IMG/VR virus record: IMGVR_UViG_3300011741_000001
Coordinates: 124,001-188,000 of that record
From: an uncultured virus (IMG/VR IMGVR_UViG_3300011741_000001)
Lineage: Duplodnaviria; Heunggongvirae; Uroviricota; Caudoviricetes
Direction: 5' to 3' (one strand)
Length of the DNA stretch: 64,000 nt
Position numbers and translations under genes: made by a program. Shown here piece by piece: positions 1 through 13,089 of this stretch. The notes under the pieces are model-generated. The model did not search any database. It was not told the origin of the DNA and was given only the letters and a program-made list of their open reading frames with translations. How positions within the stretch are numbered: the first letter of the stretch is position 1; every line of letters starts with the position of its first letter.

Positions 1-3000
1 GTACCCGAACCGTTACTCGACGGTTATTCCGCCGGAAGGCCCGTTCTATCGTACCGGGCTGGAAATCTCAATCAACACCGTGGTCAACGGCGTAACCCAA
101 AAACAAATCCTGATTGAAGGGCTCGACTATTACCTCGGCTACTACTATAAAGAAGCCTCCGAGGCATTTAACGACGCCATCTTCGGCGGGATAATGCTCC
201 TCAACGCCACCGAGTGTAACTACAGCTTATACTCTGCCGGGCGCGAATACCGCATTCCTCAAACGGAAATCGGTAAGTGGCTTGTGCGCGAAGACATGAA
301 AGACCCGCGTAACGAAGACTGGTCTGCATTAATGTCTTACGCCCCGACCATCCCCGCTATCGATCCGCCGGCGGATATGGATGAAGCCATTCTGCGTGAC
401 GAGATTGTCGCGGCACTGAATGACATCCGTAACGGACTGGTCGAACGCGCGTCTGAGATGGATGAGGCGTATGCGGACGTCACTGATTTAATCTACACCA
501 CCGGGAAGAAGATTTTTGATGACGGGTTGTATCAACACCATCTGTTGAAATCACAGGGGCACTCGTACACGGCAGACGATATCGGCGCGTTGGGTGTCAG
601 CGGTAAAGCGGTGGATGCCACCTACGCGTTTGGCATGGCGTTGAACACGTTAGTGACCATGATGTCCACCTCAGGCATTCAGGCCCAGCACCTCGCTCAG
701 TTGATGCGTAATGACACCGCCCTGAACAACGTGTTCGGTCGCCTGCGGGTGCTCAACAACAACGTCTTAACGTACAACACCGCGAACAATGACCACGTCA
801 TCACGTTCAAAGGGCCGAACATCCTCGTCTCCACCAAAAAGCCCCTGACCTTTACAGCAGATTCCGGTAACGGAAACGCAGGGCTGGCGGTTGAAATGGC
901 AGCCGGGCTGAACACGCTGATGGTGCACTCGGGTAACGAAGCACTGGCTCCGGTGTTCAACGGCGTGTATTTGATTACCCCGGACATGGTGGAAATGTAC
1001 CTGCACGCGGTGACCCTGAAAGCGGCCAACGGGTACATGGCCTCGACCGACACCGTGAAAGTGTACGGTTCCGGTAAGTCTTACTCGCCGTTCCGTCTGG
1101 AAGCGAACCTGCCGGACGCGGAGGTTGGTCTCAAAGGGTTGGTGAAGGTCACCAATAACCGTGCGACCGTTACCCCGGGCTATGCCATTTCGCAGTCGGG
1201 CATTACTGCGATGCGTGATTTGCTGGCCAACTACGTGGATGACACGTACACGGTGAACGGCAAAAGCTTTGACGCCAATCAGGCAATTGTTCTCACCACC
1301 ACCGATGTTGGAGTGGAGAAGATGAACAACACCGCACCGGTGGATAAGCCGGTGACCAAAGCGTTAACAGTAGCACTCGCCGGTAAAGCCCTGTCAACAC
1401 ACACCCACACGCTGGCCGATGTCACGGACGTGCCGTACGCGTCCTCAACAGCCGCTGGACTGGTGTTGTTGTGGAACCTGTTGGATGAGTCAACCGATCG
1501 GGTGGTCACGTCTAAGCAGGGTTACACGCTGCAATTGACACTGGCGGATTTGGAGTCGAAAGCCGCCGGGTTAATCCCCACGTGGGCGGTGTTAGGGTCG
1601 TCGTACGGGAACCTGAGTTTCCTGCCGATTCCCACCTCCGGGAATTACACCGGTTTCGCCCAGTTGCTCACCAACGATGCGTCGGTTGTGGTAAAGGAAG
1701 AGAACAACAAGGTTTACGTGCTGCGTAACGCCAGTGACGGTTATCCCGGTTCAGAGAAGGTGCTCTACTGGTCAGCGGACATCGTTTCAAACCAGATAAC
1801 GAATGCCTCGCCGACAACCGCCCGTTACACACCGGCCGGTTTAGCAGCCATTGCACCGGGCGTGACCCTGAGTAAAATCATTGCACCGGGCGAAGACGGT
1901 GCGGTGTTTGTGGGCAGTGACAACAACTGGTATCTGGTGTTGTTTGACGGCACCATCAACATGGCCAAACACACCCGTGTCGCTCGCATTACTGTCCCTG
2001 CGGTCTCTTCAAGTGTCACCCAGAAAGCCACGAACCCGAATGAAAGTCGGGTGGTGGTCACCAGTGATAAAGTGTTGCTGTTGCAGGCGGTGTTGAACAA
2101 CGACGACTTCTATACCGTCGCATGGACAGCCCCCCTCAGTGACTTTGGCAGCAAAACCGATATCACACTGGCGATACTGAAACTCACCGGCAAGTACGTC
2201 GACGGGGACATCGGACGTTTCGTGACGCAAGGTCAGAAATCCACTGACCCGGCCACGAACAACCTCTGGTACTCCAATGCAGAAGCACTGGCGAAGTGGA
2301 GTTCCCCGGCGGTAGTCTCGTACACCCGCCGTACAGTAATGGCGGCGTACAAAGACGGCAAGGTGCGTGTGCGTTTACACCCGCGCGGTCGTCCAACCGG
2401 AACCACGGCGAGCATTCTCGGCCCGGCATGGACAGTGTCGTACGTGATTGATCTCGCCACCGGTAACGTTACACTGGACGATGACTACTTCCCACTGTTC
2501 TTAGGTGTGGACGGGGTAGAGTTCCCGAAAGGGACGTACGGCGTCACCTCATTAGGGGTGGCTTACGGTGCCTCGTACATGACGGCGTTCCTGAACAACG
2601 GAATTGTCTACTGGTGTGGTGGCAGCGAGACAGAGGATAACCTCTATCGTGGCTCTACCGCCCAGACAGACAACTTCGCAGCACTGCGTTGGGATAACCT
2701 CATCAACCAGCAGTACAACGTGGTGCCGGTGCTGGGACCGTACGGTACGGTGTACGGTTTCCGTGAGCGTGGGATGGTGCATCTGGGTGGGACGTCGAAA
2801 CAGGCGTTATTCCGTCAGCGCAGTACCGCCATTTGCATGCGCAGCGCGTACAACCCGGATGGGACGTACGGGGTACCGAACTACGGTGGTTGGGGCCCCA
2901 GCAACGATCGTTCTGCGGTCTCCCAGACCGACTACGAAAACGTGTGTCGTTTGGGGTACGTGTGGGACGGCAGTAAATGCTACCTGAACGGCACGTCATT

Positions 3001-4933
3001 CAATGCAGCCGGTTCACAGGCGTACAAAAACAACGCGGGTTCCACCACGCTGACCACTGACCGGATTACCGTGTCAGCCCAGCAGTGGACGGATTACGAG
3101 AACTTCATCAATACGAACCTCCCGGACTGGAGCAATGCGGCCACCGAGATGCGTAACTATTGGTTGAGCTTCTTTGACATCGGTGGACTCAACGTGTGTA
3201 TTGCCGCCATCGAGTACACGCAGAAGAACAGCGACGGAGTGTACGTCAATTATACGTACATCTTTAAAATCCCGTTCACGTTCAACAGCAATGCCCTCGT
3301 ACTGAACTGGGCTACCGCGGTCACGGTACTGAACAAAGCCAGTTACACCATCAACACCACCGGGTTACAGTTAGCGGACTCGAACATCAACCAGATGCGT
3401 CTGATCAAGTGCGCAGACGGTTGGGTGATTCGTACCCGTATCCTGAGCCGTTGGTTGACTACCGGGACGGCGTCTAATGTGGCGTATACACTGCGTTGTG
3501 ACACCAACTGGGCAAACTGGAAAGCCGCCCGTTCGGCGTTCTACGTGGGCAGTGGGGAACTCGACCTGATTCACATGCCAGAAACTAATGAAATCGTGCA
3601 AGGCGGTTTTGTTTACTCTGGGGTGTATCTCGGGGGTGTGGCGTATCCGGGTAACACCATTAACTTCGACACGCAAGCGGGTCGGAACGTGGTGCTGTTT
3701 GGGCCGCAGGTGGAAACCGGGGCGATTCAGTACATCACGGAAGCGCAGCGTTTCTTCATCGGTTCCGCAGAGTACACGTTACCGCAGTACAGCATCAATT
3801 TTGCAACGGCGTTCACCAACTGGCAGAACTCGACCTTCTATTTCTACGCAGAGACGTACACGGATGGCGGTGTGTTAAAAGCACGCTACACGGTCACGCA
3901 GACACTGAGCCCGGATACGGACACCCGTCTGTATATCGGTTACGTGAAAACGAACGACACGACCATCAGTGAAACGAACATCAATGCGGTGAAACGCTTA
4001 GGCGGGATTCGTCAGCTGAAAGAACACATGGGGACAGTGTATCGTCACGATATCAACCCGAGCCGTGAGTTCCGTGAATCACCGTTAGCATTGCTGAAGC
4101 CGGTTGCTATCGGTACCGCCGGTGACACCTTTGCTGGGCAGTCTGCGTTGTCGGATAACGTGGGTGTGCGTCTGACCCGTCCTACGATTAACCGTTATGT
4201 TCCGGCCTCACAGCCGTGGTACAGCGGGGCCTCGTTGGCGGAATTGTTCTGGCGTACCCCGCGTGCCGTGGCGGTGACCTCAGCAGAGAACGCGGATGCG
4301 GCGGCACTCGGATTAATCTGGATTGACATTAACCAGCGGAGTATGCCGGGCTTGGGTGCATACGGCACCAAGTTCAAAGTCAACACCACCACCGGAACCT
4401 TGCGTATTCAATTTTCCGTGGACGATTACTGCAACATCTATATCGATGGGGTACGTGTCGCGAGTGGTGCCACCAGTGGCAGCTCGGTGTTGAAAACACT
4501 GGACTTCCCGGTGTCGAACGGACAGCACACGGTGGCGATTGAAACGGTGCAGGCAGAAACGGTGGGTGGGACGATTTGTCACATTGCCTTTATTGCCTAC
4601 GACTGGAACGGTACCGCCGGTCGTGAGTTGTACCGCAGCTCCAGTGCCAGCAAAGTGGGCTGGACAACGTCGCAGGGCAACACCGCCGGGAACATGGATG
4701 TGCTGGAGACTATCTCCCACGTCTACACCCCGGAGAGCGGCAAAACCGCGGTTATCTCCGTGGTGGCTCCGGAAATCCCCTACGCTCCACGCTGGCAACA
4801 ACGTGACCCGAGTACCGGGAACCTTGAGGTGGTTATCGCTTCGAAGTTCTTCGGCCCGGATGGGGCAATGGTGACGCTGACCGAGATAACCGTCAATCTT
4901 ATGTTAATCCCAACGAGTGATTTGTCGTCTTAA
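1..4933 (+). CDS. Large tail fibre / virion structural protein, 5'-truncated
   Basis: Frame 2 is open from position 2 (YPNRYSTVIPPEGPFYRTGL...), so the gene starts upstream of the window. It has fibre-type repeats (HTHTLADVTD, ASSTAAGLVLL), a long beta-rich body, and a C-terminal DDYCNIYIDG beta-sandwich-like segment. Confidence 0.75.
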   Translation, partial: YPNRYSTVIPPEGPFYRTGLEISINTVVNGVTQKQILIEGLDYYLGYYYKEASEAFNDAIFGGIMLLNATECNYSLYSAGREYRIPQTEIGKWLVREDMKDPRNEDWSALMSYAPTIPAIDPPADMDEAILRDEIVAALNDIRNGLVERASEMDEAYADVTDLIYTTGKKIFDDGLYQHHLLKSQGHSYTADDIGALGVSGKAVDATYAFGMALNTLVTMMSTSGIQAQHLAQLMRNDTALNNVFGRLRVLNNNVLTYNTANNDHVITFKGPNILVSTKKPLTFTADSGNGNAGLAVEMAAGLNTLMVHSGNEALAPVFNGVYLITPDMVEMYLHAVTLKAANGYMASTDTVKVYGSGKSYSPFRLEANLPDAEVGLKGLVKVTNNRATVTPGYAISQSGITAMRDLLANYVDDTYTVNGKSFDANQAIVLTTTDVGVEKMNNTAPVDKPVTKALTVALAGKALSTHTHTLADVTDVPYASSTAAGLVLLWNLLDESTDRVVTSKQGYTLQLTLADLESKAAGLIPTWAVLGSSYGNLSFLPIPTSGNYTGFAQLLTNDASVVVKEENNKVYVLRNASDGYPGSEKVLYWSADIVSNQITNASPTTARYTPAGLAAIAPGVTLSKIIAPGEDGAVFVGSDNNWYLVLFDGTINMAKHTRVARITVPAVSSSVTQKATNPNESRVVVTSDKVLLLQAVLNNDDFYTVAWTAPLSDFGSKTDITLAILKLTGKYVDGDIGRFVTQGQKSTDPATNNLWYSNAEALAKWSSPAVVSYTRRTVMAAYKDGKVRVRLHPRGRPTGTTASILGPAWTVSYVIDLATGNVTLDDDYFPLFLGVDGVEFPKGTYGVTSLGVAYGASYMTAFLNNGIVYWCGGSETEDNLYRGSTAQTDNFAALRWDNLINQQYNVVPVLGPYGTVYGFRERGMVHLGGTSKQALFRQRSTAICMRSAYNPDGTYGVPNYGGWGPSNDRSAVSQTDYENVCRLGYVWDGSKCYLNGTSFNAAGSQAYKNNAGSTTLTTDRITVSAQQWTDYENFINTNLPDWSNAATEMRNYWLSFFDIGGLNVCIAAIEYTQKNSDGVYVNYTYIFKIPFTFNSNALVLNWATAVTVLNKASYTINTTGLQLADSNINQMRLIKCADGWVIRTRILSRWLTTGTASNVAYTLRCDTNWANWKAARSAFYVGSGELDLIHMPETNEIVQGGFVYSGVYLGGVAYPGNTINFDTQAGRNVVLFGPQVETGAIQYITEAQRFFIGSAEYTLPQYSINFATAFTNWQNSTFYFYAETYTDGGVLKARYTVTQTLSPDTDTRLYIGYVKTNDTTISETNINAVKRLGGIRQLKEHMGTVYRHDINPSREFRESPLALLKPVAIGTAGDTFAGQSALSDNVGVRLTRPTINRYVPASQPWYSGASLAELFWRTPRAVAVTSAENADAAALGLIWIDINQRSMPGLGAYGTKFKVNTTTGTLRIQFSVDDYCNIYIDGVRVASGATSGSSVLKTLDFPVSNGQHTVAIETVQAETVGGTICHIAFIAYDWNGTAGRELYRSSSASKVGWTTSQGNTAGNMDVLETISHVYTPESGKTAVISVVAPEIPYAPRWQQRDPSTGNLEVVIASKFFGPDGAMVTLTEITVNLMLIPTSDLSS

Positions 4934-4978: not shown

Positions 4979-6178
4979 ATGAGTGATATTATTTTCCAGT
5001 ATCCGCTTGACTTAAAAGGGTCACTGACATCGAACGCGGTATCCATCCCCGTCGTGTTAGGTTCCGGTAAAGTCAATCGGTCATTTGCGTTTCCGGCTGG
5101 CCCGTTCTACGCAGAATCGTTTAAACTCCGCTCAGTGAGTTCACCGGCTACCCCGTATAAACGCGGGACGGACTTTGAACTTATCTTTGCGCACAACGCA
5201 TACCAGAAACTCTCGGGCAACCAAGAGATTTGCATGGCCGTGGTTGTGACCAACAGTGCTGTCCCGACGGATATCGTGGTGTCGGCACAGGTCGTCGGGG
5301 GTCCACAGTCCGCAAACATCGTGGCTATTAAAGACGCGATTATTGCACTGAACCTCGATAACCAGAAAGTCAATTTTGCTGATTTGATTGACTTCCCGGA
5401 CACCTTACCGGGTGCCCCGGCGTTCAAAGATATCGGTGACATGTATGGTTTCGAGTACATCATTGCGATGCTCTCGGGGATTATCGATGTTATCGGGTCA
5501 GGTTCTGCAGTTCAGTTGGAGAAAATCAAGGACATCATCGAAAGCATCAAGAACAATTTCCTCGATGCCTTGAACAACCACATCAATGCCACGGGCAACG
5601 TTCACGATCTGGATATCCATCAGATTGACGGCTTGACCGCAACGGAAATTCGTCAGCTGATTGCTGGCGTACAGGCGGCCATTGATGCAACTGTATTGCA
5701 AATCAACGACCTGAAAGCTGCGGACAACACCATCAACGTCCGCATCGACGGCATCATCAATTCACTGGCCACGTTTACTGACCAGCTGAACACGGTAGAC
5801 CAAAACTACCAGAAGATGACGTTGATTGTCGCGAACCTGAACTCGCTCGTGTTGTCGCTGCAGAAAACCATCGGTGAGATGCAGCAACGTGAAGATGCGA
5901 TGCAGGCAGAAATCGATGACCTGAAATCCGGGGCCAGCGATAGTCAGCAGCAGATTGACCAGCTGCGTACCGACCTGACCGCATTGGCCCGTCGTGTCAC
6001 CGCGAACGAAGGGAACATCTCGACCGTGAGTCAAACGCTTTCGAACCACCTGTCAGCAGCCGACCCGCACACCCAGTACCTGCACAAACAGTACGGTGGT
6101 ACTGTGCAGGCGAACGTCCACGTCAACGCGAACCTTACCACGCGTGATGACGTCCAGGCGGATGCCGGTACCAAATAA
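4979..6178 (+). CDS. Virion structural / tail fibre-associated coiled-coil protein
   Basis: The N-terminal domain (PAGPFY...GTDFEL) is paralogous to that of the upstream gene. It has a long heptad coiled coil and a HLSAADPHTQY fibre motif. ATG at 4979 preferred over TTG at 4973. Confidence 0.7.
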   Translation: MSDIIFQYPLDLKGSLTSNAVSIPVVLGSGKVNRSFAFPAGPFYAESFKLRSVSSPATPYKRGTDFELIFAHNAYQKLSGNQEICMAVVVTNSAVPTDIVVSAQVVGGPQSANIVAIKDAIIALNLDNQKVNFADLIDFPDTLPGAPAFKDIGDMYGFEYIIAMLSGIIDVIGSGSAVQLEKIKDIIESIKNNFLDALNNHINATGNVHDLDIHQIDGLTATEIRQLIAGVQAAIDATVLQINDLKAADNTINVRIDGIINSLATFTDQLNTVDQNYQKMTLIVANLNSLVLSLQKTIGEMQQREDAMQAEIDDLKSGASDSQQQIDQLRTDLTALARRVTANEGNISTVSQTLSNHLSAADPHTQYLHKQYGGTVQANVHVNANLTTRDDVQADAGTK

Positions 6179-6190
6179 GTTTATTTACGC

Positions 6191-6220
6191 ACGGGCCTCG
6201 TCTTTATGGCGAGTGCCCGT
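6191..6220. other. Intergenic stem-loop upstream of the Cys-repeat operon
   Basis: ACGGGC-CTCG...CGAG-T-GCCCGT inverted repeat with no strong U-tract, so it may not be a terminator. Confidence 0.4.
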
Positions 6221-6242
6221 ATCTTATTAAAAAGGAAAGGTA

Positions 6243-6632
6243 ATGGCGATCTCACTTAAAGACTTAAGTGCCCGTCTTGACCGAGTCCAGGCTGCGACCG
6301 GCGCTTCAGTTGACGCACAGGTCAATAGCAAGGTTCATAACGCCAATTTATTGGGCGGTCAAAATACCGCGTGGGCACGGTGTAACGGGTCGTGTAGCTG
6401 GACCTGTTCTTCGGGTTGTAGCCACGGGTGTTCAAGTTGTTCTGGAAGCTGTAGCGGTGTCTGTACGGGGAACTGCAGTGGTTCGTGTTCTGGGGGTTGC
6501 GGCGGCGGGTGTTCTGCAACGTGTTCCGGTGGCTGTGGTGGCGGATGTGCGGGTGCTTGTAGTGGCGCGTGCTCCGGTGGATGCAGTTCCGGCTGTACCG
6601 GCAGTTGTGGTGCAGGCTGTAGCGGACCTTAG
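6243..6632 (+). CDS. CXXX-repeat Cys/Gly/Ser-rich peptide 1 (probable radical SAM substrate)
   Basis: 46-aa Cys-free N-terminal part, then 21 Cys almost all at period 4, ending CSGP. RBS AAGGAAAGG upstream. Confidence 0.85.
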   Translation: MAISLKDLSARLDRVQAATGASVDAQVNSKVHNANLLGGQNTAWARCNGSCSWTCSSGCSHGCSSCSGSCSGVCTGNCSGSCSGGCGGGCSATCSGGCGGGCAGACSGACSGGCSSGCTGSCGAGCSGP

Positions 6633-6640
6633 GAGCAATC

Positions 6641-7069
6641 ATGGCAATTTCATTAAAGACTATCGCTGCGCGCGTAGCAAACATCGAAAACACCGCATTA
6701 AAGACTCAGGCAGGCGTACAAACGTACATTGCTGGCCGCACCACGAACAACGCGGATTTGTTTGGCGGGCAAAACCCGTCTTACTACCACTGCGGGGGCA
6801 CGTGTAGCTGGACGTGTAGTAACGGCTGTTCAGGAGGGTGTACCGGTAACTGTTCGTCGGGCTGCAGTTCGGCGTGTTCTGGTAACTGTTCTTCCAGTTG
6901 TACGGGAGGCTGTGCGGGGAGCTGTGGCGGTAACTGTGGGGGTGGTTGTTCAGGTGGTTGTTCTGGCGGGTGCTCTGGTACCTGTTCGGGCAAATGCTCT
7001 GGCGGCTGTTCTGGCGGTTGTAGCTCGGGCTGTACCGGTTCGTGCGGGGCTGGGTGTTCTGGACCGTAG
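6641..7069 (+). CDS. CXXX-repeat Cys/Gly/Ser-rich peptide 2 (probable radical SAM substrate)
   Basis: Paralogue of peptide 1 (MAISLK start). 23 Cys at perfect period 4, last 20 aa identical to peptide 1. RBS AGGAG. Confidence 0.85.
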   Translation: MAISLKTIAARVANIENTALKTQAGVQTYIAGRTTNNADLFGGQNPSYYHCGGTCSWTCSNGCSGGCTGNCSSGCSSACSGNCSSSCTGGCAGSCGGNCGGGCSGGCSGGCSGTCSGKCSGGCSGGCSSGCTGSCGAGCSGP

Positions 7070-7077
7070 GAGGACGC

Positions 7078-7287
7078 ATGGCTGTCAGTGAAAAAGATAT
7101 CGGTAACCGGGTACGGATTGTAGAAGGGTATATTACCACGGCGCAAGCCAACAGCTACATCGCGAACTCGGGGACGTGTAACAACACCAACAACTTGGGC
7201 GGCATTCGTGCCGGGGCGTATAACTGCGGGGGAACGTGCAGTTGGACTAGCTCCGGGGGTGCGAAAGGCATCACTGCGCCGAGTTAA
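7078..7287 (+). CDS. Short third paralogue of the CXXX-repeat peptides (69 aa)
   Basis: ATG 7078 after GGAGGA. Sequence MAVSEKDIGNRV...NTNNLGG...YNCGGTCSWT keeps the leader and first repeat motif but lacks the long Cys array. Confidence 0.75.
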   Translation: MAVSEKDIGNRVRIVEGYITTAQANSYIANSGTCNNTNNLGGIRAGAYNCGGTCSWTSSGGAKGITAPS

Positions 7288-7299
7288 CAGGGGAAACCA

Positions 7300-8226
7300 A
7301 TGAAGAGTAACGATCATCTTGCTTATCGCACCAGTCTGAATTACCCGCTTCAGATTGCCTCACCGGATTCGGTTAATGCACACGTCAATGACCAACTCCG
7401 GCTGATTGCGATGGATCAGTTCGACTGGCCTAAGCTGCGCGGTCGCGATTTTGTTAACAAAACGTACACCGTGACAGACGAAACCACCGTGGGCAAGCTG
7501 AACGTGAAATCCGTCCAGTTCGCACAAGGCGGTGGCGGCTATACCGGGAAACTTATTGACGATAAGTATTTCTTTACAGATGCGGTGTTAAACTATGCGC
7601 CGGATTTGGAATTGATGTTCTCGTCGTTTAAAGAACTCGGTTGTCGTCCGGTGTGCGTGCGCAGTTACAGCAGCGATTACTGCGGTAGCTGGGTGTCCCT
7701 GTTTAAGATTGTGGGTGCCGGTCAGGGCGGAGTGGAAATCAATCGTGAGAAGTACCATCCGTTTACCGGATTGGATGCGGCGAACATTGACTGCTTAGCC
7801 GACCTGCTGGCGTTCAGTTATAAGTTTGCGTGGAATGCAGCAGACCAGACATGGCAGTACGTGGATGACCTGCAACTGCAAACCCAACGCATTCGTAAAC
7901 CGTGGATGGCGTATCTGACGCAATGCGAATTCGGTGCGGTACCGAACTCCAGTGCCGATGACCACAAGCTGATTCGTTTCCTGCTGCAATCACAACGCAG
8001 CGAGTTCACGGAAGAGCAGCAAACCGCTTTAGCACCGTTTTTCGAATCCCCGGTTGAACTGGACGAGTTAACCCGTATGGGTGAGCGTCAGAAAGTTCTT
8101 AACGCGTTGTACGACGCGTATCGCTCGCCGCGCTTGATTAAAGCCGGTGAAGATGTACGTGACACTGACCCCCTGTTTTCGTTCCAACGTCGCCTGTACG
8201 GAATGACGGATGCGAACGCTAACTAA
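7300..8226 (+). CDS. Hypothetical protein in the radical SAM operon
   Basis: 308-aa ORF tightly packed between the peptides and the first radical SAM gene (17-nt overlap). No family recognised. Confidence 0.7.
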   Translation: MKSNDHLAYRTSLNYPLQIASPDSVNAHVNDQLRLIAMDQFDWPKLRGRDFVNKTYTVTDETTVGKLNVKSVQFAQGGGGYTGKLIDDKYFFTDAVLNYAPDLELMFSSFKELGCRPVCVRSYSSDYCGSWVSLFKIVGAGQGGVEINREKYHPFTGLDAANIDCLADLLAFSYKFAWNAADQTWQYVDDLQLQTQRIRKPWMAYLTQCEFGAVPNSSADDHKLIRFLLQSQRSEFTEEQQTALAPFFESPVELDELTRMGERQKVLNALYDAYRSPRLIKAGEDVRDTDPLFSFQRRLYGMTDANAN

Positions 8227-9109
8227 AGACATCTTCTCACCCGCCAAGACCATTAACGTGGCATTGACGGCGAAGTGTAACCTGAACTGCGCGTTTTGTG
8301 CGGGTGAGATGCACATGGTCAAGGGGGATGTGTCTCGTAAAACCCATATAGAGGCAATGATGGAGTTACTTAAAAAGAATCCCGAAGTGGAGGAGATCAT
8401 CTGGACTGGCGGTGAGCCGTTACTGGCTTACAACAAACTGGTCGAGTCGGTCGAAGTGATGCGACAGCAGCGTCCGAGTGCTGTGCATTACCTGTTCACG
8501 AACGGGCGTAAGCTGCGCTTAGAGCAAGTCGATTTCTTGAAAACCTTCCATCGTGTGGTCGTCTCTATTGATGGCTATGACAACATGGAACGTGCGCTGA
8601 TGGACTTTGCCCGCTCGGGTGATAACGAAGCGTTCGAAACCATCGCAGCATTGGATAATGTCATTCTGTGGTCAGTGCTTACCCGTGAACGTGTCGGGAA
8701 CATGCGCTGGTTCGAAGACATGATGCAAATGCAAAATGCAATTCACCACCTCGGCTTTATCGGCATGAACTATTTGTTCGATAATCAGATGCCGAAGATT
8801 TTATCACCTGACCACGTCCTGAACTTCACGTACGGCTTTGATTTGCTGCGCGACAATATGCGTCGTCTGAATAAGATGAATGGTCGCGAGACGATTATCA
8901 AGTTGGAGAAGTTCTTCCCAATGGACAGCTGCAACGCATGCAGTGAAATTATCGTCAGCCAACCCAATGGTGATGTGCAGGTGCCGGAGAACCAAGAGAT
9001 TATCGTTGACCGTGGTTGCAACAAGATTGCCCACGCGATTGGTAAGCCGGCCTACGACTACATCATGAATTGGATGAACCCAATCAAACAACCTAAAGAC
9101 GGGAGATAG
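8210..9109 (+). CDS. Radical SAM protein
   Basis: CNLNCAFC (CX3CX2C) motif, WTGGEP, FTNG, SIDG. C-terminal CNAC...GC residues. Confidence 0.92.
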   Translation: MRTLTKDIFSPAKTINVALTAKCNLNCAFCAGEMHMVKGDVSRKTHIEAMMELLKKNPEVEEIIWTGGEPLLAYNKLVESVEVMRQQRPSAVHYLFTNGRKLRLEQVDFLKTFHRVVVSIDGYDNMERALMDFARSGDNEAFETIAALDNVILWSVLTRERVGNMRWFEDMMQMQNAIHHLGFIGMNYLFDNQMPKILSPDHVLNFTYGFDLLRDNMRRLNKMNGRETIIKLEKFFPMDSCNACSEIIVSQPNGDVQVPENQEIIVDRGCNKIAHAIGKPAYDYIMNWMNPIKQPKDGR

Positions 9110-9110
9110 G

Positions 9111-10496
9111 ATGGACGCCACGTATCAGATAGTAACCAACCTATCATGCAACCTCGACTGCGAATACTGCTATGAACGCAAATACCCGCGTAACAACAAA
9201 GTGGCAGACGTGGTCGACTTTATTCACGCCTGTTTTAATCGTGATGTCAATCGTTTCCATAATGACATTAATGGTATTATTATTGATATCATTGGTGGCG
9301 AGCCGTTCATGCAGCCGAAGCTATTATACGCTGCATTCGAAACTGCGGAAGAACTGTGTAAGAAACACAACCTCCCGTACGTGTTCTCCATCTCGACCAA
9401 CGGCACGCTGTTCAACAAACCGCTGGCGCTCGAAATTCTGAACCGTTGGAAAGACGTGTTGTCTCTCGGCGTGTCGATTGACGGCCTGCCAGAAACCCAC
9501 GACCGTTACCGTATCTACACCACGTCCCGTAATGGTTCGTACGCAGATGCCGTTGCAGGTTATCACCTCGCCAAAAACATCGGTGTGCGTGAGATGGGCG
9601 TGAAAGCAACGTTCACCAAAGAAACCCTGATGCAATACGCGGCGGGTATGAAGTCACTGATTGACGTGACCGGCGGTGGTCGTCTGTACGGCAACGTGGT
9701 GTTTGAAGACGTGTTACCGCGTCAGATGGCGCTGGAGATTGCTAACCAGTTCATCGAAGTGGCCGAGTATTTCATCGAGAAGGGTTTGCACTTAGACCCG
9801 GAATCGGAAATCGGTCACGTGTTGCCAGACGGTCTGAACGTTGACCAGCTGTGGAACCCGGACTGGCGTGATAAGCTGATTCACGATGACGAAGTGCGCT
9901 ACAACAAAGAGCGTCTGCGTCCGCACTGCGGTACCACCGTGTACATGACCTGTCTCGGCTTTGACCGGAATATCTTCGGGTGTAACCGTTTCATGTCCAC
10001 CGTGACCACCCGTCAGGCTATCGGTAAACTCGAAGGCCAGACGATTGTGAACACCGACGGCGGGAAACTGTTGGCGGAAGTGCAGGAGCAGTGGAAGTCG
10101 TATCCGGATCAATGTATCGGTTGTCCTGCGAAGCACCTGTGCGCGTCGTGTGTGGCCGCTGCTTACGAGAACGGTGACGGCGAAGAAGATGCGCGTAAAG
10201 CGTATCACGGCGAACGTCGCCAGTGCGGTTGGACGACTGCGAAGCTGCTGGTTGCCCAGTGGTGGAAACAGCGTTTTGGTTCGTACGAGTCGCAGTATGA
10301 CAAGTCGGTGTGTAACTGTTACCAGTGCCGCCAGAAGCGCAACCTCGAAGCGGAATTCGCCGCTCAGGATGCAGCAGAACGCCCATTACACTTCACCGCT
10401 ATGAAAGAAGTGACCATGGCCGTTGAACAAACCCCTCGCAAGGAACAATTCAAAAATGAAGAACCTGCTGATCCAGGATTTTACGAAGTTCGATAG
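9111..10496 (+). CDS. Radical SAM/SPASM peptide maturase (CXXX-repeat target type)
   Basis: CNLDCEYC, IIGGEPF, STNGTL, SIDG..ETHD. SPASM-like Cys set CGT...GCNRF...CIGCPAKHLCASC...C, plus an extra CNCYQC. Confidence 0.92.
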   Translation: MDATYQIVTNLSCNLDCEYCYERKYPRNNKVADVVDFIHACFNRDVNRFHNDINGIIIDIIGGEPFMQPKLLYAAFETAEELCKKHNLPYVFSISTNGTLFNKPLALEILNRWKDVLSLGVSIDGLPETHDRYRIYTTSRNGSYADAVAGYHLAKNIGVREMGVKATFTKETLMQYAAGMKSLIDVTGGGRLYGNVVFEDVLPRQMALEIANQFIEVAEYFIEKGLHLDPESEIGHVLPDGLNVDQLWNPDWRDKLIHDDEVRYNKERLRPHCGTTVYMTCLGFDRNIFGCNRFMSTVTTRQAIGKLEGQTIVNTDGGKLLAEVQEQWKSYPDQCIGCPAKHLCASCVAAAYENGDGEEDARKAYHGERRQCGWTTAKLLVAQWWKQRFGSYESQYDKSVCNCYQCRQKRNLEAEFAAQDAAERPLHFTAMKEVTMAVEQTPRKEQFKNEEPADPGFYEVR

Positions 10497-11004
10497 CCGC
10501 AAAATCGAAGCGTTTCTGCAACACCATAAGCTGTTTAACGTGCATGCGATTGTGCCGGCAGATGCGTTTACGGATCAGTGGTTGAAACTCATGAACCGTT
10601 TTGCTATTAACGTGGTCGTGCCTTTGGACGGCGTCGATGATACGCACAACGGGTTGTTCGAAAGTGAGAAGCGTAACCCCGGTTTAGAAGCACGACTGTT
10701 AGCGGCTCCGGCCTCTAAGCTGAACATCCTGTTCCAGTCGTCATTAGAACCGGGTCACGGTAAAGCAGTGGCGCTGGCGCTGTCGTTCCCAGAGGTGCCG
10801 GTGTGGATGGTTCGTAACCCGGAAGGTCCATGCCAGTATTTTGACGACATGCAATTAGTGCGTGCGTTTGATGCAAATGATGCACCACTCCCGAACGTAC
10901 AGTATCGTTTAGACTTGCGTGCCGACTTCTACCCCGTGTCGTATGAGACGTTAACGAAGTCGGGTATTGTTGGAGAAAATGAATGCTTAGTGCTGGTGAA
11001 ATAA
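10456..11004 (+). CDS. Degenerate radical-SAM-like protein
   Basis: ATG 10456 (MKNLLIQD) preferred. VVVPLDGVDDTHN resembles the SIDG..ETHD strand of radical SAM barrels, but there is no CX3CX2C motif. Confidence 0.55.
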   Translation: MKNLLIQDFTKFDSRKIEAFLQHHKLFNVHAIVPADAFTDQWLKLMNRFAINVVVPLDGVDDTHNGLFESEKRNPGLEARLLAAPASKLNILFQSSLEPGHGKAVALALSFPEVPVWMVRNPEGPCQYFDDMQLVRAFDANDAPLPNVQYRLDLRADFYPVSYETLTKSGIVGENECLVLVK

Positions 11005-11624
11005 AAGCCCGCTTCGAGCAGAACCAAGGGATGATTGACCGTAATGGGTTGTTCTTTGACCCGAACGGTGAAATCTCGTTGGCGCAGCGTTTGCATTATG
11101 CATTGCTGGAAGGCTTGAGCGAAAAGGATGCGTTACGGAACCTGCAAGCGGATGGGGCGTCAGAGTTTGAGGCGAACTACACGCTGAAGCAGACCAAAAC
11201 GTTCATTAAAGATGTGCTGGAGATTGACATCGACAGTTACATCAAAGAGCAGCAGTCAACCACCGCGTACTCGTACCGTGAACTCGACACCAAACTCGAG
11301 GAAGCGAACACAGCGTATGCGGCAGCGGTGACCGCGGACATTACGTACAAAGACCACCAGTTCCAAACCAGTGAGGGTACCCTCTCCACACTGGGCAGCT
11401 ACGTACAGACCGAGACCTGGCCTGAGTATTGGGTCAGTTCGGATAACGCGGCAGTGGAAGACTGGACGGCTGACGACACGAAGCAGTTGTATGCGCTGAT
11501 TGTCGCCCGTAATGCCCAGCTGCATGTGGCACTCACTGCGTACAAAGTCCGTCTGCGTGCATTCGCAGAACAGGGCAATTACGCAGCGTTAAAAGCAGCG
11601 GAGTTTAATCCGTCTGTGGAGTGA
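10983..11624 (+). CDS. DUF4376-like tail fibre-associated protein
   Basis: C-terminal ITYKDHQFQT...WVSSDNA...TADD..QL...H...LK-type pattern typical of DUF4376. Confidence 0.6.
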   Translation: MLSAGEIKARFEQNQGMIDRNGLFFDPNGEISLAQRLHYALLEGLSEKDALRNLQADGASEFEANYTLKQTKTFIKDVLEIDIDSYIKEQQSTTAYSYRELDTKLEEANTAYAAAVTADITYKDHQFQTSEGTLSTLGSYVQTETWPEYWVSSDNAAVEDWTADDTKQLYALIVARNAQLHVALTAYKVRLRAFAEQGNYAALKAAEFNPSVE

Positions 11625-11628
11625 AACC

Positions 11629-11660
11629 GGTGCCCTTCGGGGCACCCTTCTTTATTTTTT
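11629..11660 (+). terminator. Rho-independent terminator closing the tail fibre/radical SAM operon
   Basis: GGTGCCC-TTCG-GGGCACC followed by a T-rich tract. Confidence 0.85.
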
Positions 11661-11702: not shown

Positions 11703-12293
11703 ATGATCGACACCGCACGCTTTAGCCGTATGGGCATCATTAAAGCAAAAGTCAATATCGAAGCCGGGTATGTGAAAGACCCGGATGACCTCGGGGGCGA
11801 AACCATCTGGGGCGTGACCAAAGCCACTGCGCTGGAGTACGGTTACAAAGGCAACATGAAAGACATGCCACAGTCCACCGCGTACGACATCTACACCAAA
11901 CTGTGGTGGAACAAACTGTTGCTGGATGACATTGTGGCTATCAACCCGCTGCTGGCTGACCGTATGTTCGACTACGCGATTAACGCCGGCCGTGCCAACT
12001 GCGTGGAATCCCTGCAGCGTTTGCTGAACGTGCTGAACAATCAGGAAACCCACTACCCGGATATCGTGGTAGACAAAGGCATGGGGCCAAAAACCCGCGA
12101 CACCATCAAAGCGTTGTTCGCCAAACGTGGTGCCGAGGGCATGAACTACCTGATGATGGCACTCACCGGGATGCAGACCTATCACTACGTGGATATCTCT
12201 GAAAAGCGTAAAGCCAACGAGAAGTTCACCTACGGTTGGATGGGGCGTATCTGGGGCGAGATGTCTACGTACGCAAAAGCACTGTTTGGTTAA
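11703..12293 (+). CDS. Endolysin, glycoside hydrolase family 108 with C-terminal peptidoglycan-binding domain
   Basis: EAGYVKDPDDLGGETIWGVT catalytic motif, FDYAINAG, and a C-terminal NEKFTYGW. Confidence 0.9.
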   Translation: MIDTARFSRMGIIKAKVNIEAGYVKDPDDLGGETIWGVTKATALEYGYKGNMKDMPQSTAYDIYTKLWWNKLLLDDIVAINPLLADRMFDYAINAGRANCVESLQRLLNVLNNQETHYPDIVVDKGMGPKTRDTIKALFAKRGAEGMNYLMMALTGMQTYHYVDISEKRKANEKFTYGWMGRIWGEMSTYAKALFG

Positions 12294-12304
12294 GGAGAGG
12301 CATT

Positions 12305-12406
12305 ATGAAAGCCGAAGTTACTGAAGAAGGGGTCGTCAAACAAGGTCTCGGGGCGGTTGCTTTGGTGTTGTTCTTTAGTCGCTTGTTTGGGAAGGTAAAG
12401 AAATGA
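12305..12406 (+). CDS. Small membrane-type peptide (33 aa), not in the ORF track
   Basis: RBS AAGGAGAGG. Sequence MKAEVTEEGVVKQGLGAVALVLFFSRLFGKVKK. Its stop overlaps the next start (ATGA). Confidence 0.6.
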   Translation: MKAEVTEEGVVKQGLGAVALVLFFSRLFGKVKK

Positions 12407-13089
12407 GCCCATTGGACTTTACGTACCGTCGTTTAGAAGGTAAATGGTTTATCCTGACACAGGACTTCCATTACCCGTTTACGCTACGCACACTCTACCG
12501 CAACACCCCGGAGCTGGACAAGATGGTCGCCTTGGCGGGCGTCCACCCGGATGAGATGTTTTACATTACGGTACCGAAAGGGTTCGTGACTGACCTCGCG
12601 AGTATCCCGGAAGTCTTACAGAATGTGATGCACCCTGATGGGCCGTGGTCGCAAGCCGCGTGTCTGCACGACCTGCTCTACCAGAAGCGTTCCAGCGATG
12701 CCGTTTACCCGGACACTCCGTCGGGACGCCTCAGTCGGTCACACGACAAATACTTCGCGGATCTGATGTTCCTGCGGGTGATGGAAGCCACCGGTGTGAG
12801 TGAAGTCGTGGCCCGCAGTTTCTACGATGCGGTACACCTCTTCGGTCAGTCGTCTTACGTGGACGACAACTCCGATTGCCATTACACCCAGTTCTCAGAA
12901 AACACCGTGGAGTACGCGCGTAACTACCTGTTCTTCCGCCAAGCGTTAGAGCCGGCTGTACCGATTGATGAACGTCACGCGTTGGAGTCCGGTATCGCGT
13001 CGAACGTGAAATACCGTAACATCAAGCGGGCTTTCCTGACCGACCCTGAGAACGCCATAGAGGGCGTTAACTTGGAATCGGTTGCGTAA
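12403..13089 (+). CDS. DUF1353 family protein
   Basis: VPKGFVTDLASIP...AACLHDLLY...ADLMFLRVM motif set. Confidence 0.8.
   Translation: MSPLDFTYRRLEGKWFILTQDFHYPFTLRTLYRNTPELDKMVALAGVHPDEMFYITVPKGFVTDLASIPEVLQNVMHPDGPWSQAACLHDLLYQKRSSDAVYPDTPSGRLSRSHDKYFADLMFLRVMEATGVSEVVARSFYDAVHLFGQSSYVDDNSDCHYTQFSENTVEYARNYLFFRQALEPAVPIDERHALESGIASNVKYRNIKRAFLTDPENAIEGVNLESVA

Follow-up and report, generated by a model that had tools for sequence, protein, structure and literature searches.

Radical S-adenosylmethionine (SAM) enzymes of the SPASM type are known as maturases of small natural products and of a few enzyme cofactors. The closest described systems for the locus presented here are CteB (SCIFF/thermocellin); PapB, which forms the ranthipeptide freyrasin and uses Asp and Glu as acceptors; and the CXXX-repeat system of NCBIfam, in which the radical SAM/SPASM family TIGR04115 is assigned the targets TIGR04114, TIGR04117, and TIGR04118. 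TIGR04115 comes from comparative genomics only; we know of no biochemical characterization of its chemistry, and a literature search found nothing. To our knowledge, radical SAM cross-linking of any virion protein has likewise not been described, and the literature search found none. We analyzed a 64,000-nucleotide stretch of an uncultured jumbo phage related to SPN3US (the window; positions 124,001 to 188,000 of IMG/VR record IMGVR_UViG_3300011741_000001). It contains a cassette of eight co-oriented, closely packed genes on the plus strand (positions 6243-11624), directly 3' of two fiber-type genes. These genes encode two proteins with long Cys ladders (p1 and p2), a short paralog (p3), two radical SAM enzymes (A and B), and three further proteins. 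From sequence comparison and by analogy with characterized maturases, we consider it fairly probable that the cassette serves the enzymatic maturation, probably by thioether cross-linking, of a fiber-associated structural protein and is not a natural-product pathway.

The two long peptides have an N-terminal part of 46 (p1) and 50 (p2) residues followed by a ladder core of 83-92 residues. The core of p1 has 21 Cys (19 gaps of four and one of three) and that of p2 has 23 (22 gaps of four), exactly the counts and the period that the original prediction had read from the sequence alone. The N-terminal part and the junction motif between the two regions, [D/N]A..L.G...YY[R/H/D]-C..GCSW[T/S]C, recur in p3, but it carries just 3 Cys. 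When each core was shuffled 10,000 times, the mean number of gaps of four fell to 2.2 and 2.4, with maxima of 10 and 9. Changes in the third codon position dominated in comparisons with the Wellington-type loci L004 and L005 (63/97, 79/120, and 33/54 against L004), and the frame encoding the Cys is therefore a coding frame under purifying selection. The Cys-repeat open reading frames (ORFs) are real genes and not artefacts of composition.

Both p1 and p2 passed the 20-bit cut-off of TIGR04114, a Cys-rich repeat listed as a radical SAM target, as had been anticipated for them; the search with p3 gave no match to this model. All three proteins belong to phrog_6085, a family of unknown function. 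The peptides were compared in 11 sequences, comprising the window and 10 of the 12 related loci (L005 and L009 were omitted as near-duplicates of L004 and L008). The Cys count of p1 was 21 in 11/11 sequences, despite varying CXX/CXXX spacing; p2 had 23 Cys in two sequences and 20 in nine, and p3 had three in two and four in nine. The start of the ladder, C.G.CSW.CS.GC, was nearly invariant, and farther along the chain Cys alone was conserved.

Enzymes A and B both exceeded the 29.5-bit cut-off of PF04055. The best NCBIfam model for enzyme B was TIGR04115 (109.8 bits), with residues 7-365 aligned to positions 7-344 of the 359 in the model; the PapB model matched over nearly its whole length with 102.9 bits (cut-off 340). 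The nearest solved structure in profile searches was CteB (5wgg, E 1.5e-22), followed by anSME, ChlB, and SkfB. In an alignment with 10 orthologs and one distant phage homolog, the CX3CX2C cysteines of enzyme B (C13, C17, and C20) were invariant in 12/12 sequences, as were C273, C281, C291, C335, C338, C344, C347, and C372, which show a SPASM arrangement. On this sequence evidence, the relatives of enzyme B are maturases of peptides and proteins (TIGR04115, PapB, and CteB) and not the cofactor or nucleotide-modification families, clustering with which had been named in advance as evidence against a maturation system. CXXX-repeat targets in the gene neighborhood are part of how TIGR04115 is recognized; here, enzyme B has p1 and p2 upstream at a distance of about 2 kb, with the same arrangement in 12/12 loci. 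Enzyme B is likely the main maturase. Enzyme A has a CX3CX2C motif and three C-terminal Cys, and its C23, C27, C30, C241, C244, and C270 were invariant in 12/12 sequences. Its putative auxiliary-cluster region contains just three Cys (C241, C244, and C270), and no domain model matched there.

The relationship of the ladder to tail fibers emerged from longer homologs of p2. The search gave 177 longer proteins at E <=0.001, of which 120 were listed, and the junction motif was found in 15 of these 120. In all 15, the ladder extended from the motif to 3-6 residues short of the C-terminus and stood behind 145-415 residues. All 15 also matched phrog_6085, including part of the region that would be taken for a leader in p1-p3. 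The N-terminal parts of 11 of them matched PHROG tail or tail-fiber families, most strongly in P0015 (phrog_7037, E 1.6e-34) and P0049 (phrog_910, E 2.4e-20), with P0036 also strong; the other four had no further match. Residues 7-128 of p2 aligned with residues 174-297 of P0015 across both leader and ladder (BLASTP E 4e-26), and the leader therefore corresponds to the final shaft segment and the shaft-tip junction of a fiber. Judged by sequence, it is not a typical leader of a ribosomally made peptide with post-translational modifications (RiPP). The p1-p3 proteins would then be stand-alone versions of a C-terminal, distal fiber module made of a short helical segment, the junction motif, and a ladder of about 20 Cys spaced by small residues. 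The occurrence of this leader-ladder unit at the C-termini of tail-fiber-type proteins, together with a comparable fusion in an unrelated phage (below), supports the original suggestion that the target is associated with a fiber. Viral scans were also run with two of the listed proteins: the one with P0049 found nothing, and the one with P0021 gave 20 loci that matched residues 46-172 only and not the ladder.

The remaining p2 matches among those listed were heterogeneous and included bacterial lipoprotein-like proteins, huge repeat proteins, peptidoglycan-binding proteins, and a fusion of a radical SAM enzyme with a ladder. P0010, P0048, P0055, and P0091 have C-terminal Cys ladders on bacterial proteins with signal-peptide or lipoprotein-like N-termini, P0106 has an N-terminal ladder on a protein with peptidoglycan-binding domains, and P0001-P0007 are chains of 1,600-1,800 aa with >140 ladder Cys. 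In P0097, a metagenomic protein of 661 aa, a maturase-like radical SAM/SPASM region is fused to a C-terminal ladder of about 39 Cys, so that enzyme and presumed substrate lie in one chain.

The co-occurrence of ladder and enzymes was examined across phages. Homologs of enzyme B were present in 76 phage records (coverage >=80% in 62), mostly from phages of Erwinia (34) and Salmonella (32), with others from Cronobacter, Escherichia, and Proteus. The module order (gp167-like fiber, p1, p2, p3, phrog_8030 protein, enzyme A, enzyme B, half-barrel protein, DUF4376 protein) was the same in 12/12 SPN3US-like IMG/VR loci, so that peptides and enzymes occur together in every related locus, as the prediction required. 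The scan of IMG/VR returned four more loci with remote radical SAM matches and no cassette. In a scan of bacterial genomes with enzyme B (80 loci kept), the matches covered the N-terminal radical SAM region only (26-36% identity over ~130-290 residues), and the cassette was not seen in any prophage, the loci not having been inspected further.

A similar set of genes was found in a 32.9-kb contig of a contractile-tail, P2-like phage (L105). There, a baseplate wedge gene (phrog_6), a phrog_48 tail protein, and fiber-type genes are followed by a 387-aa fiber-ladder fusion with the junction motif, a short radical SAM enzyme, a phrog_8030-like protein, a long radical SAM/SPASM enzyme, and the tail sheath. 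The short enzyme (262 aa) matched the alignment of enzyme A with an hhalign probability of 96.9%; the helper (242 aa) matched phrog_8030 (E 1.2e-5) and, with an hhalign probability of 88.5%, the helical domain of its counterpart in the window; the long enzyme (398 aa) scored 153.2 bits with the PapB model and 152.6 bits with TIGR04115. Because L105 has the same set, the arrangement of two radical SAM enzymes with a phrog_8030 protein is not peculiar to jumbo phages. In a third group (L100-L104, contigs of 47-62 kb), a baseplate wedge gene is followed by a 362-aa ladder protein with 62 Cys, a 194-aa helper, a TIGR04115-like radical SAM enzyme (295.8 bits), and tail genes; the helper, examined in L100, resembled neither the 182-aa nor the 308-aa protein of the window. 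Ladder and radical SAM enzyme thus co-occur inside the tail modules of three unrelated phage types.

These findings bear on a classical RiPP pathway, in which the leaders would be cut off and the cross-linked cores released on lysis as peptides with a bioactivity directed, for instance, at competing bacteria or phages. The matches of TIGR04114/TIGR04115 type, the PapB/CteB-like enzymology, the small precursors, conserved in their N-terminal part and hypervariable in the core, and the endolysin gene directly downstream would all suit such a pathway. However, searches of the eight genes with Pfam, NCBIfam, and PHROGs gave no peptidase, transporter or exporter, or immunity family, as had already been noticed at first reading, and no RRE-type domain was matched in the cassette proteins, the enzymes included, with Pfam and NCBIfam. 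Moreover, the apparent leader shares homology with the junction of shaft and tip in fused fiber proteins, the L105 kit sits between baseplate and sheath genes, and cores of 83-92 residues with 21-23 Cys are far above the known ranthipeptides and sactipeptides in size. A released peptide product therefore seems quite improbable. The description of the system as RiPP-like, made in the original prediction, suits the enzymology but not the product, for which neither leader peptidase nor exporter was detected and whose leader resembles part of a fiber.

Several points weigh against the maturation of a fiber protein. Both the virion location and the modification of p1-p3 are predicted. The comparison of enzyme B with TIGR04115, proposed beforehand, gave the expected top-ranking model, but the score stayed far below the 350 bits curated as its cut-off. 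PapB uses Asp and Glu as acceptors, and neither residue occurs in the ladder cores. The tail-family matches were weak in seven of the 15 fused proteins (E 1e-4 to 1e-6), and because ladders also occur in bacterial lipoprotein-like and other non-fiber proteins, a ladder alone does not imply a fiber. None of 27 gp167 homologs, all of 399-400 aa, was fused to a ladder and none had PF27846; hhalign found no profile similarity between the leader and the gp167-like fiber (probability 1%). The predicted status of the modification and the sub-threshold score of enzyme B would also suit ladders that are unmodified metal or disulfide modules, with the radical SAM enzymes acting on another substrate such as a different fiber protein or a small molecule; dense Cys arrays are generally able to bind metals or form disulfides without enzymes. 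We regard this as very unlikely, given the strict co-occurrence of ladder and radical SAM enzyme in three lineages (12/12 jumbo loci, L100-L104, and L105), the joining of both in P0097, and the designation of TIGR04114 by NCBIfam as the target repeat of TIGR04115.

A further point against virion maturation comes from the proteomics of SPN3US. Its gp167-gp173 are listed as virion proteins (PMC5694885, Supplementary Table 1), gp168-gp170 are termed "baseplate/tail fiber candidate" by the authors, and gp168 is compared to gp131 of phiKZ, located at the baseplate periphery (PMC5694885, PMC5105663). The two genes upstream of the cassette, originally called tail fiber genes, encode homologs of gp168 and gp167, both virion proteins according to that table. 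The same virion list does not include gp161-gp166 (PMC5694885), of which gp161 is the ortholog of the DUF4376 protein. This could indicate that the modified ladders act inside the infected cell, either as a scaffold or chaperone of fiber assembly or by taking up host metals or redox equivalents. An assembly context is suggested by the DUF4376 protein and the nearby DUF1353 "tail assembly chaperone", and the lack of a gp167-ladder fusion among the 27 homologs would agree with it. However, the SPN3US RefSeq record (L002, positions 6094-7123) has, as gp100/gp166, a wrong-frame ORF over p2 and leaves p1 and p3 unannotated, so the absence of the Cys proteins from the virion list is uninformative. 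If the annotated proteome was searched, the proteomics probably could not have identified them. Lys and Arg are present in the N-terminal parts of the Cys proteins, which should therefore yield tryptic peptides. The Kwan RefSeq record (L001, positions 8001-9046) similarly has a wrong-frame ORF for p1 and an opposite-strand ORF for p2, and only p3 is correct. The 15 proteins (of the 120 listed) that carry the ladder covalently as the C-terminal end of fiber-type proteins of virion families also argue against an intracellular role, which we regard as unlikely. The absence of the two enzymes, the phrog_8030 protein, the half-barrel protein, and the DUF4376 protein from the virion list fits non-virion helpers in the maturation of a fiber component. 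No paper discussing these SPN3US-type genes, or phage Cys ladders with radical SAM enzymes, was found in the literature search, in keeping with the initial impression that the system was uncharacterized.

The accessory proteins were examined by structure prediction. The AlphaFold2 (AF2) model of the phrog_8030 protein (pLDDT, the predicted local distance difference test, 83.8; predicted template modeling score (pTM) 0.79) consisted of a β-rich N-terminal domain and a helical C-terminal domain. No fold analog was found in the PDB (best Foldseek E 0.26; best Z 4.2 in a wide VIA-align search, for the helical part only); BFVD returned its own ortholog only, and ESM Atlas scores were <=0.85. The 182-aa protein was modeled by AF2 as a partial β/α barrel (pLDDT 89.5). 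Its best natural structural match with VIA-align was 3can_A (Z 9.5, root-mean-square deviation 3.1, 144 aligned residues); further radical SAM cores followed (SuiB, Z 8.7; viperin, 8.2; a radical SAM methyltransferase, 8.1; NifB, 8.0), and generic TIM barrels reached Z 7-8, within one Z unit of these cores. 3can_A comes from Bacteroides and is a "domain of pyruvate-formate lyase-activating enzyme" that stands alone with 161 residues; its match to the model hints that radical-SAM-like half-barrels without a cluster may form a wider class. The alignment of 20 sequences of the 182-aa protein showed no conserved Cys, and hence no CX3CX2C motif; there was no Pfam or NCBIfam match, and hhalign probabilities with enzymes A and B were 0.9% and 0.08%. 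The earlier description of this protein as a degenerate radical-SAM-like protein thus fits the predicted fold but not the sequence. Its one long match, P0152 (2135 aa, seven stretches), is a repeat protein and was judged spurious. The last protein of the cassette had also been named correctly as DUF4376-like: PF14301 covered residues 103-198 with a score above the cut-off of 25 bits.

Co-folding of the three N-terminal parts of p1-p3 gave a median ipSAE of 0.42 (runs 0.42, 0.68, and 0.38), compared with 0.03 for the best of three controls; the partner pLDDT was >=55, and >=58% of the contacts were common between runs. In the calibration of these complex predictions, the mark was reached by 116/157 solved complexes and 2/215 mismatched pairs, and scores <=0.60 held just 18 of those solved complexes and both passing mismatches. 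Because the median lies in that range, the pass is a weak one, and the models only hint at a possible co-assembly of p1, p2, and p3 via their N-terminal parts.

The most far-reaching form of this reading can be offered only tentatively, as a possibility rather than an expectation. In it, a distal tail-fiber element would receive about 20 cross-links, thioethers or others of radical origin, from the radical SAM enzymes and would become an enzymatically cross-linked adhesin or rod of the virion; in SPN3US-like phages, this element would be split into three mini-proteins (two ladders and one stub) that co-assemble via their N-terminal parts and dock on gp167/gp168-type fibers. In the main reading, which we consider fairly probable, the cassette would be expressed with the fiber genes as one late unit, co-transcription being suggested by the co-orientation, the overlaps, and the terminator. 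In enzyme B, the CX3CX2C cluster would cleave SAM and the SPASM auxiliary clusters would hold the substrate Cys; by analogy with CteB and PapB, it would install many ladder cross-links, most likely thioethers that join the Cys sulfur to a carbon of the backbone or of a side chain. Enzyme A, with one putative auxiliary cluster site, could introduce a second type or set of modifications. The phrog_8030 protein and the cluster-less half-barrel would be substrate-presenting or scaffolding partners, and the DUF4376 protein may take part in fiber assembly or attachment. The resulting ladder would be rigid and withstand redox change and proteases, and it would be carried on or with gp167/gp168-type fibers, where it could serve host-surface contact or fiber stability.

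The window belongs to a phage genome of ~240 kb (a contig of 239,534 bp is the recorded source of the window's gp167-like protein), and the DNA of the cassette region is ~77% identical to the Erwinia phages pEa_SNUABM_11, Kwan, and Wellington (genus Wellingtonvirus). All eight plus-strand ORFs were present where the original prediction had placed them, and the terminator expected at position 11629 was found as a hairpin followed by a T run (Table 1). The spacing between the eight genes, in order, is 8, 8, 12, -17, 1, -41 (-74 from the longest ORF), and -22 nt. For p3, the mechanical ORF spans 7042-7287, and an ATG at 7078 preceded by an AGGAGG-like site gives a protein of 69 aa, the length of its orthologs. 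For the 182-aa protein, the longest ORF is 10423-11004 (193 aa), and the PHROG match and the orthologs begin at the ATG at 10456. The public copy of the gp167-like protein has 399 aa, and of its 27 homologs 25 have 399 aa and two have 400; in view of these lengths, its true start is probably the ATG two codons past the listed TTG. A scan for sigma-70 promoters gave three sites compared with 5.7 expected and was uninformative.

Table 1. Features of the cassette region in the window (positions in nucleotides from the first letter of the window)
Feature	Coordinates	Strand	Supporting observations
gp168-like large fiber/baseplate-periphery protein	2..4933	+	open at window start; phrog_7449 E 0, 1655.9 bits
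gp167-like coiled-coil fiber protein, ~400 aa	4973..6178	+	phrog_2163 "virion structural protein" E 2.8e-97; opens the conserved module
p1, Cys-ladder protein 1, 129 aa	6243..6632	+	TIGR04114 27.9 bits; phrog_6085 E 1.9e-30
p2, Cys-ladder protein 2, 142 aa	6641..7069	+	TIGR04114 27.9 bits; phrog_6085 E 4.4e-35
p3, short paralog, 69 aa	7078..7287	+	phrog_6085 E 4.7e-23
phrog_8030 accessory protein, 308 aa	7300..8226	+	phrog_8030 E 1.8e-123
Enzyme A, radical SAM, 299 aa	8210..9109	+	PF04055 51.7 bits
Enzyme B, radical SAM/SPASM, 461 aa	9111..10496	+	PF04055 45.0 bits; TIGR04115 E 2e-31
Cluster-less partial β/α-barrel protein, 182 aa	10456..11004	+	phrog_7988 E 6.1e-64
DUF4376 protein, 213 aa, last gene of the module	10983..11624	+	PF14301 28.2 bits; phrog_8169 E 3.1e-75
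Intrinsic terminator closing the unit	11629..11655	+	hairpin 11629-11646, 7-bp stem with 6 GC pairs, 4-nt loop, T-rich tail

Beyond the cassette, positions 11703-13089 of the window encode a GH108/PG_binding_3 endolysin and the DUF1353 protein assigned by PHROG as "tail assembly chaperone". These two genes switch side and strand across the 12 loci, and because they sit on the opposite strand further downstream in SPN3US-type relatives, the terminator was taken as the boundary of the cassette. Between them, a 56-aa ORF with a hydrophobic stretch (positions 12236-12406) may encode a small lysis or membrane protein; at this place, Kwan has an annotated gene of 114 nt, gp175. In two of the related loci, an extra paralog of enzyme A was observed between p1 and p2 (L008, positions 2543-3454; L009, positions 2542-3453).

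If the proposed maturation of a fiber component is true, it would provide the first radical-SAM-modified structural protein of a virion, a role for the orphan CXXX-repeat/TIGR04115 radical SAM family, a new use of radical SAM chemistry, and a new principle of fiber stabilization or host recognition. The reference records of well-studied phages such as SPN3US and Kwan mis-annotate or miss the Cys-repeat genes. These phages are candidates for the biocontrol of Erwinia and Salmonella, and an unrecognized fiber component bears on adsorption.

Compared with the NCBIfam CXXX-repeat system, the cassette shares a period-4 Cys target adjoining a radical SAM/SPASM enzyme. It differs by the addition of a second radical SAM enzyme, a phrog_8030 helper, a cluster-less half-barrel, and a DUF4376 protein, by its place in a phage fiber module, by a target whose N-terminal part is that of a fiber junction, and by the distance of enzyme B from the family cut-off (109.8 versus 350 bits). 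CteB and PapB are the closest characterized relatives of enzyme B and share with it the CX3CX2C motif and the full set of SPASM Cys. In contrast to CteB, which has an N-terminal RiPP recognition element (RRE) domain, such a domain is not apparent in enzyme B, whose CX3CX2C motif starts at residue 13; in contrast to the substrates of both enzymes, those of the cassette have 129-142 aa and >20 Cys, with cores lacking Asp and Glu, and the product is probably structural. The pairing of a long SPASM enzyme with a shorter radical SAM enzyme resembles HxsB/HxsC, and the best NCBIfam match of enzyme A was HxsC (49.6 bits), with enzyme B scoring 60.7 bits against HxsB; however, the cut-offs of 267.9 and 370 lie far above these scores, and the target repeat belongs to another kind of sequence. 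Among virion proteins, the capsid chainmail of HK97 is a covalently cross-linked precedent; unlike it, cross-links in the cassette products would come from dedicated radical SAM enzymes. The locus is also comparable to phage fibers with specialized distal tips and assembly factors, with which it shares the position of the cassette 3' of fiber genes, the distal place of the ladder in the fused homologs, and what appear to be non-virion helpers.

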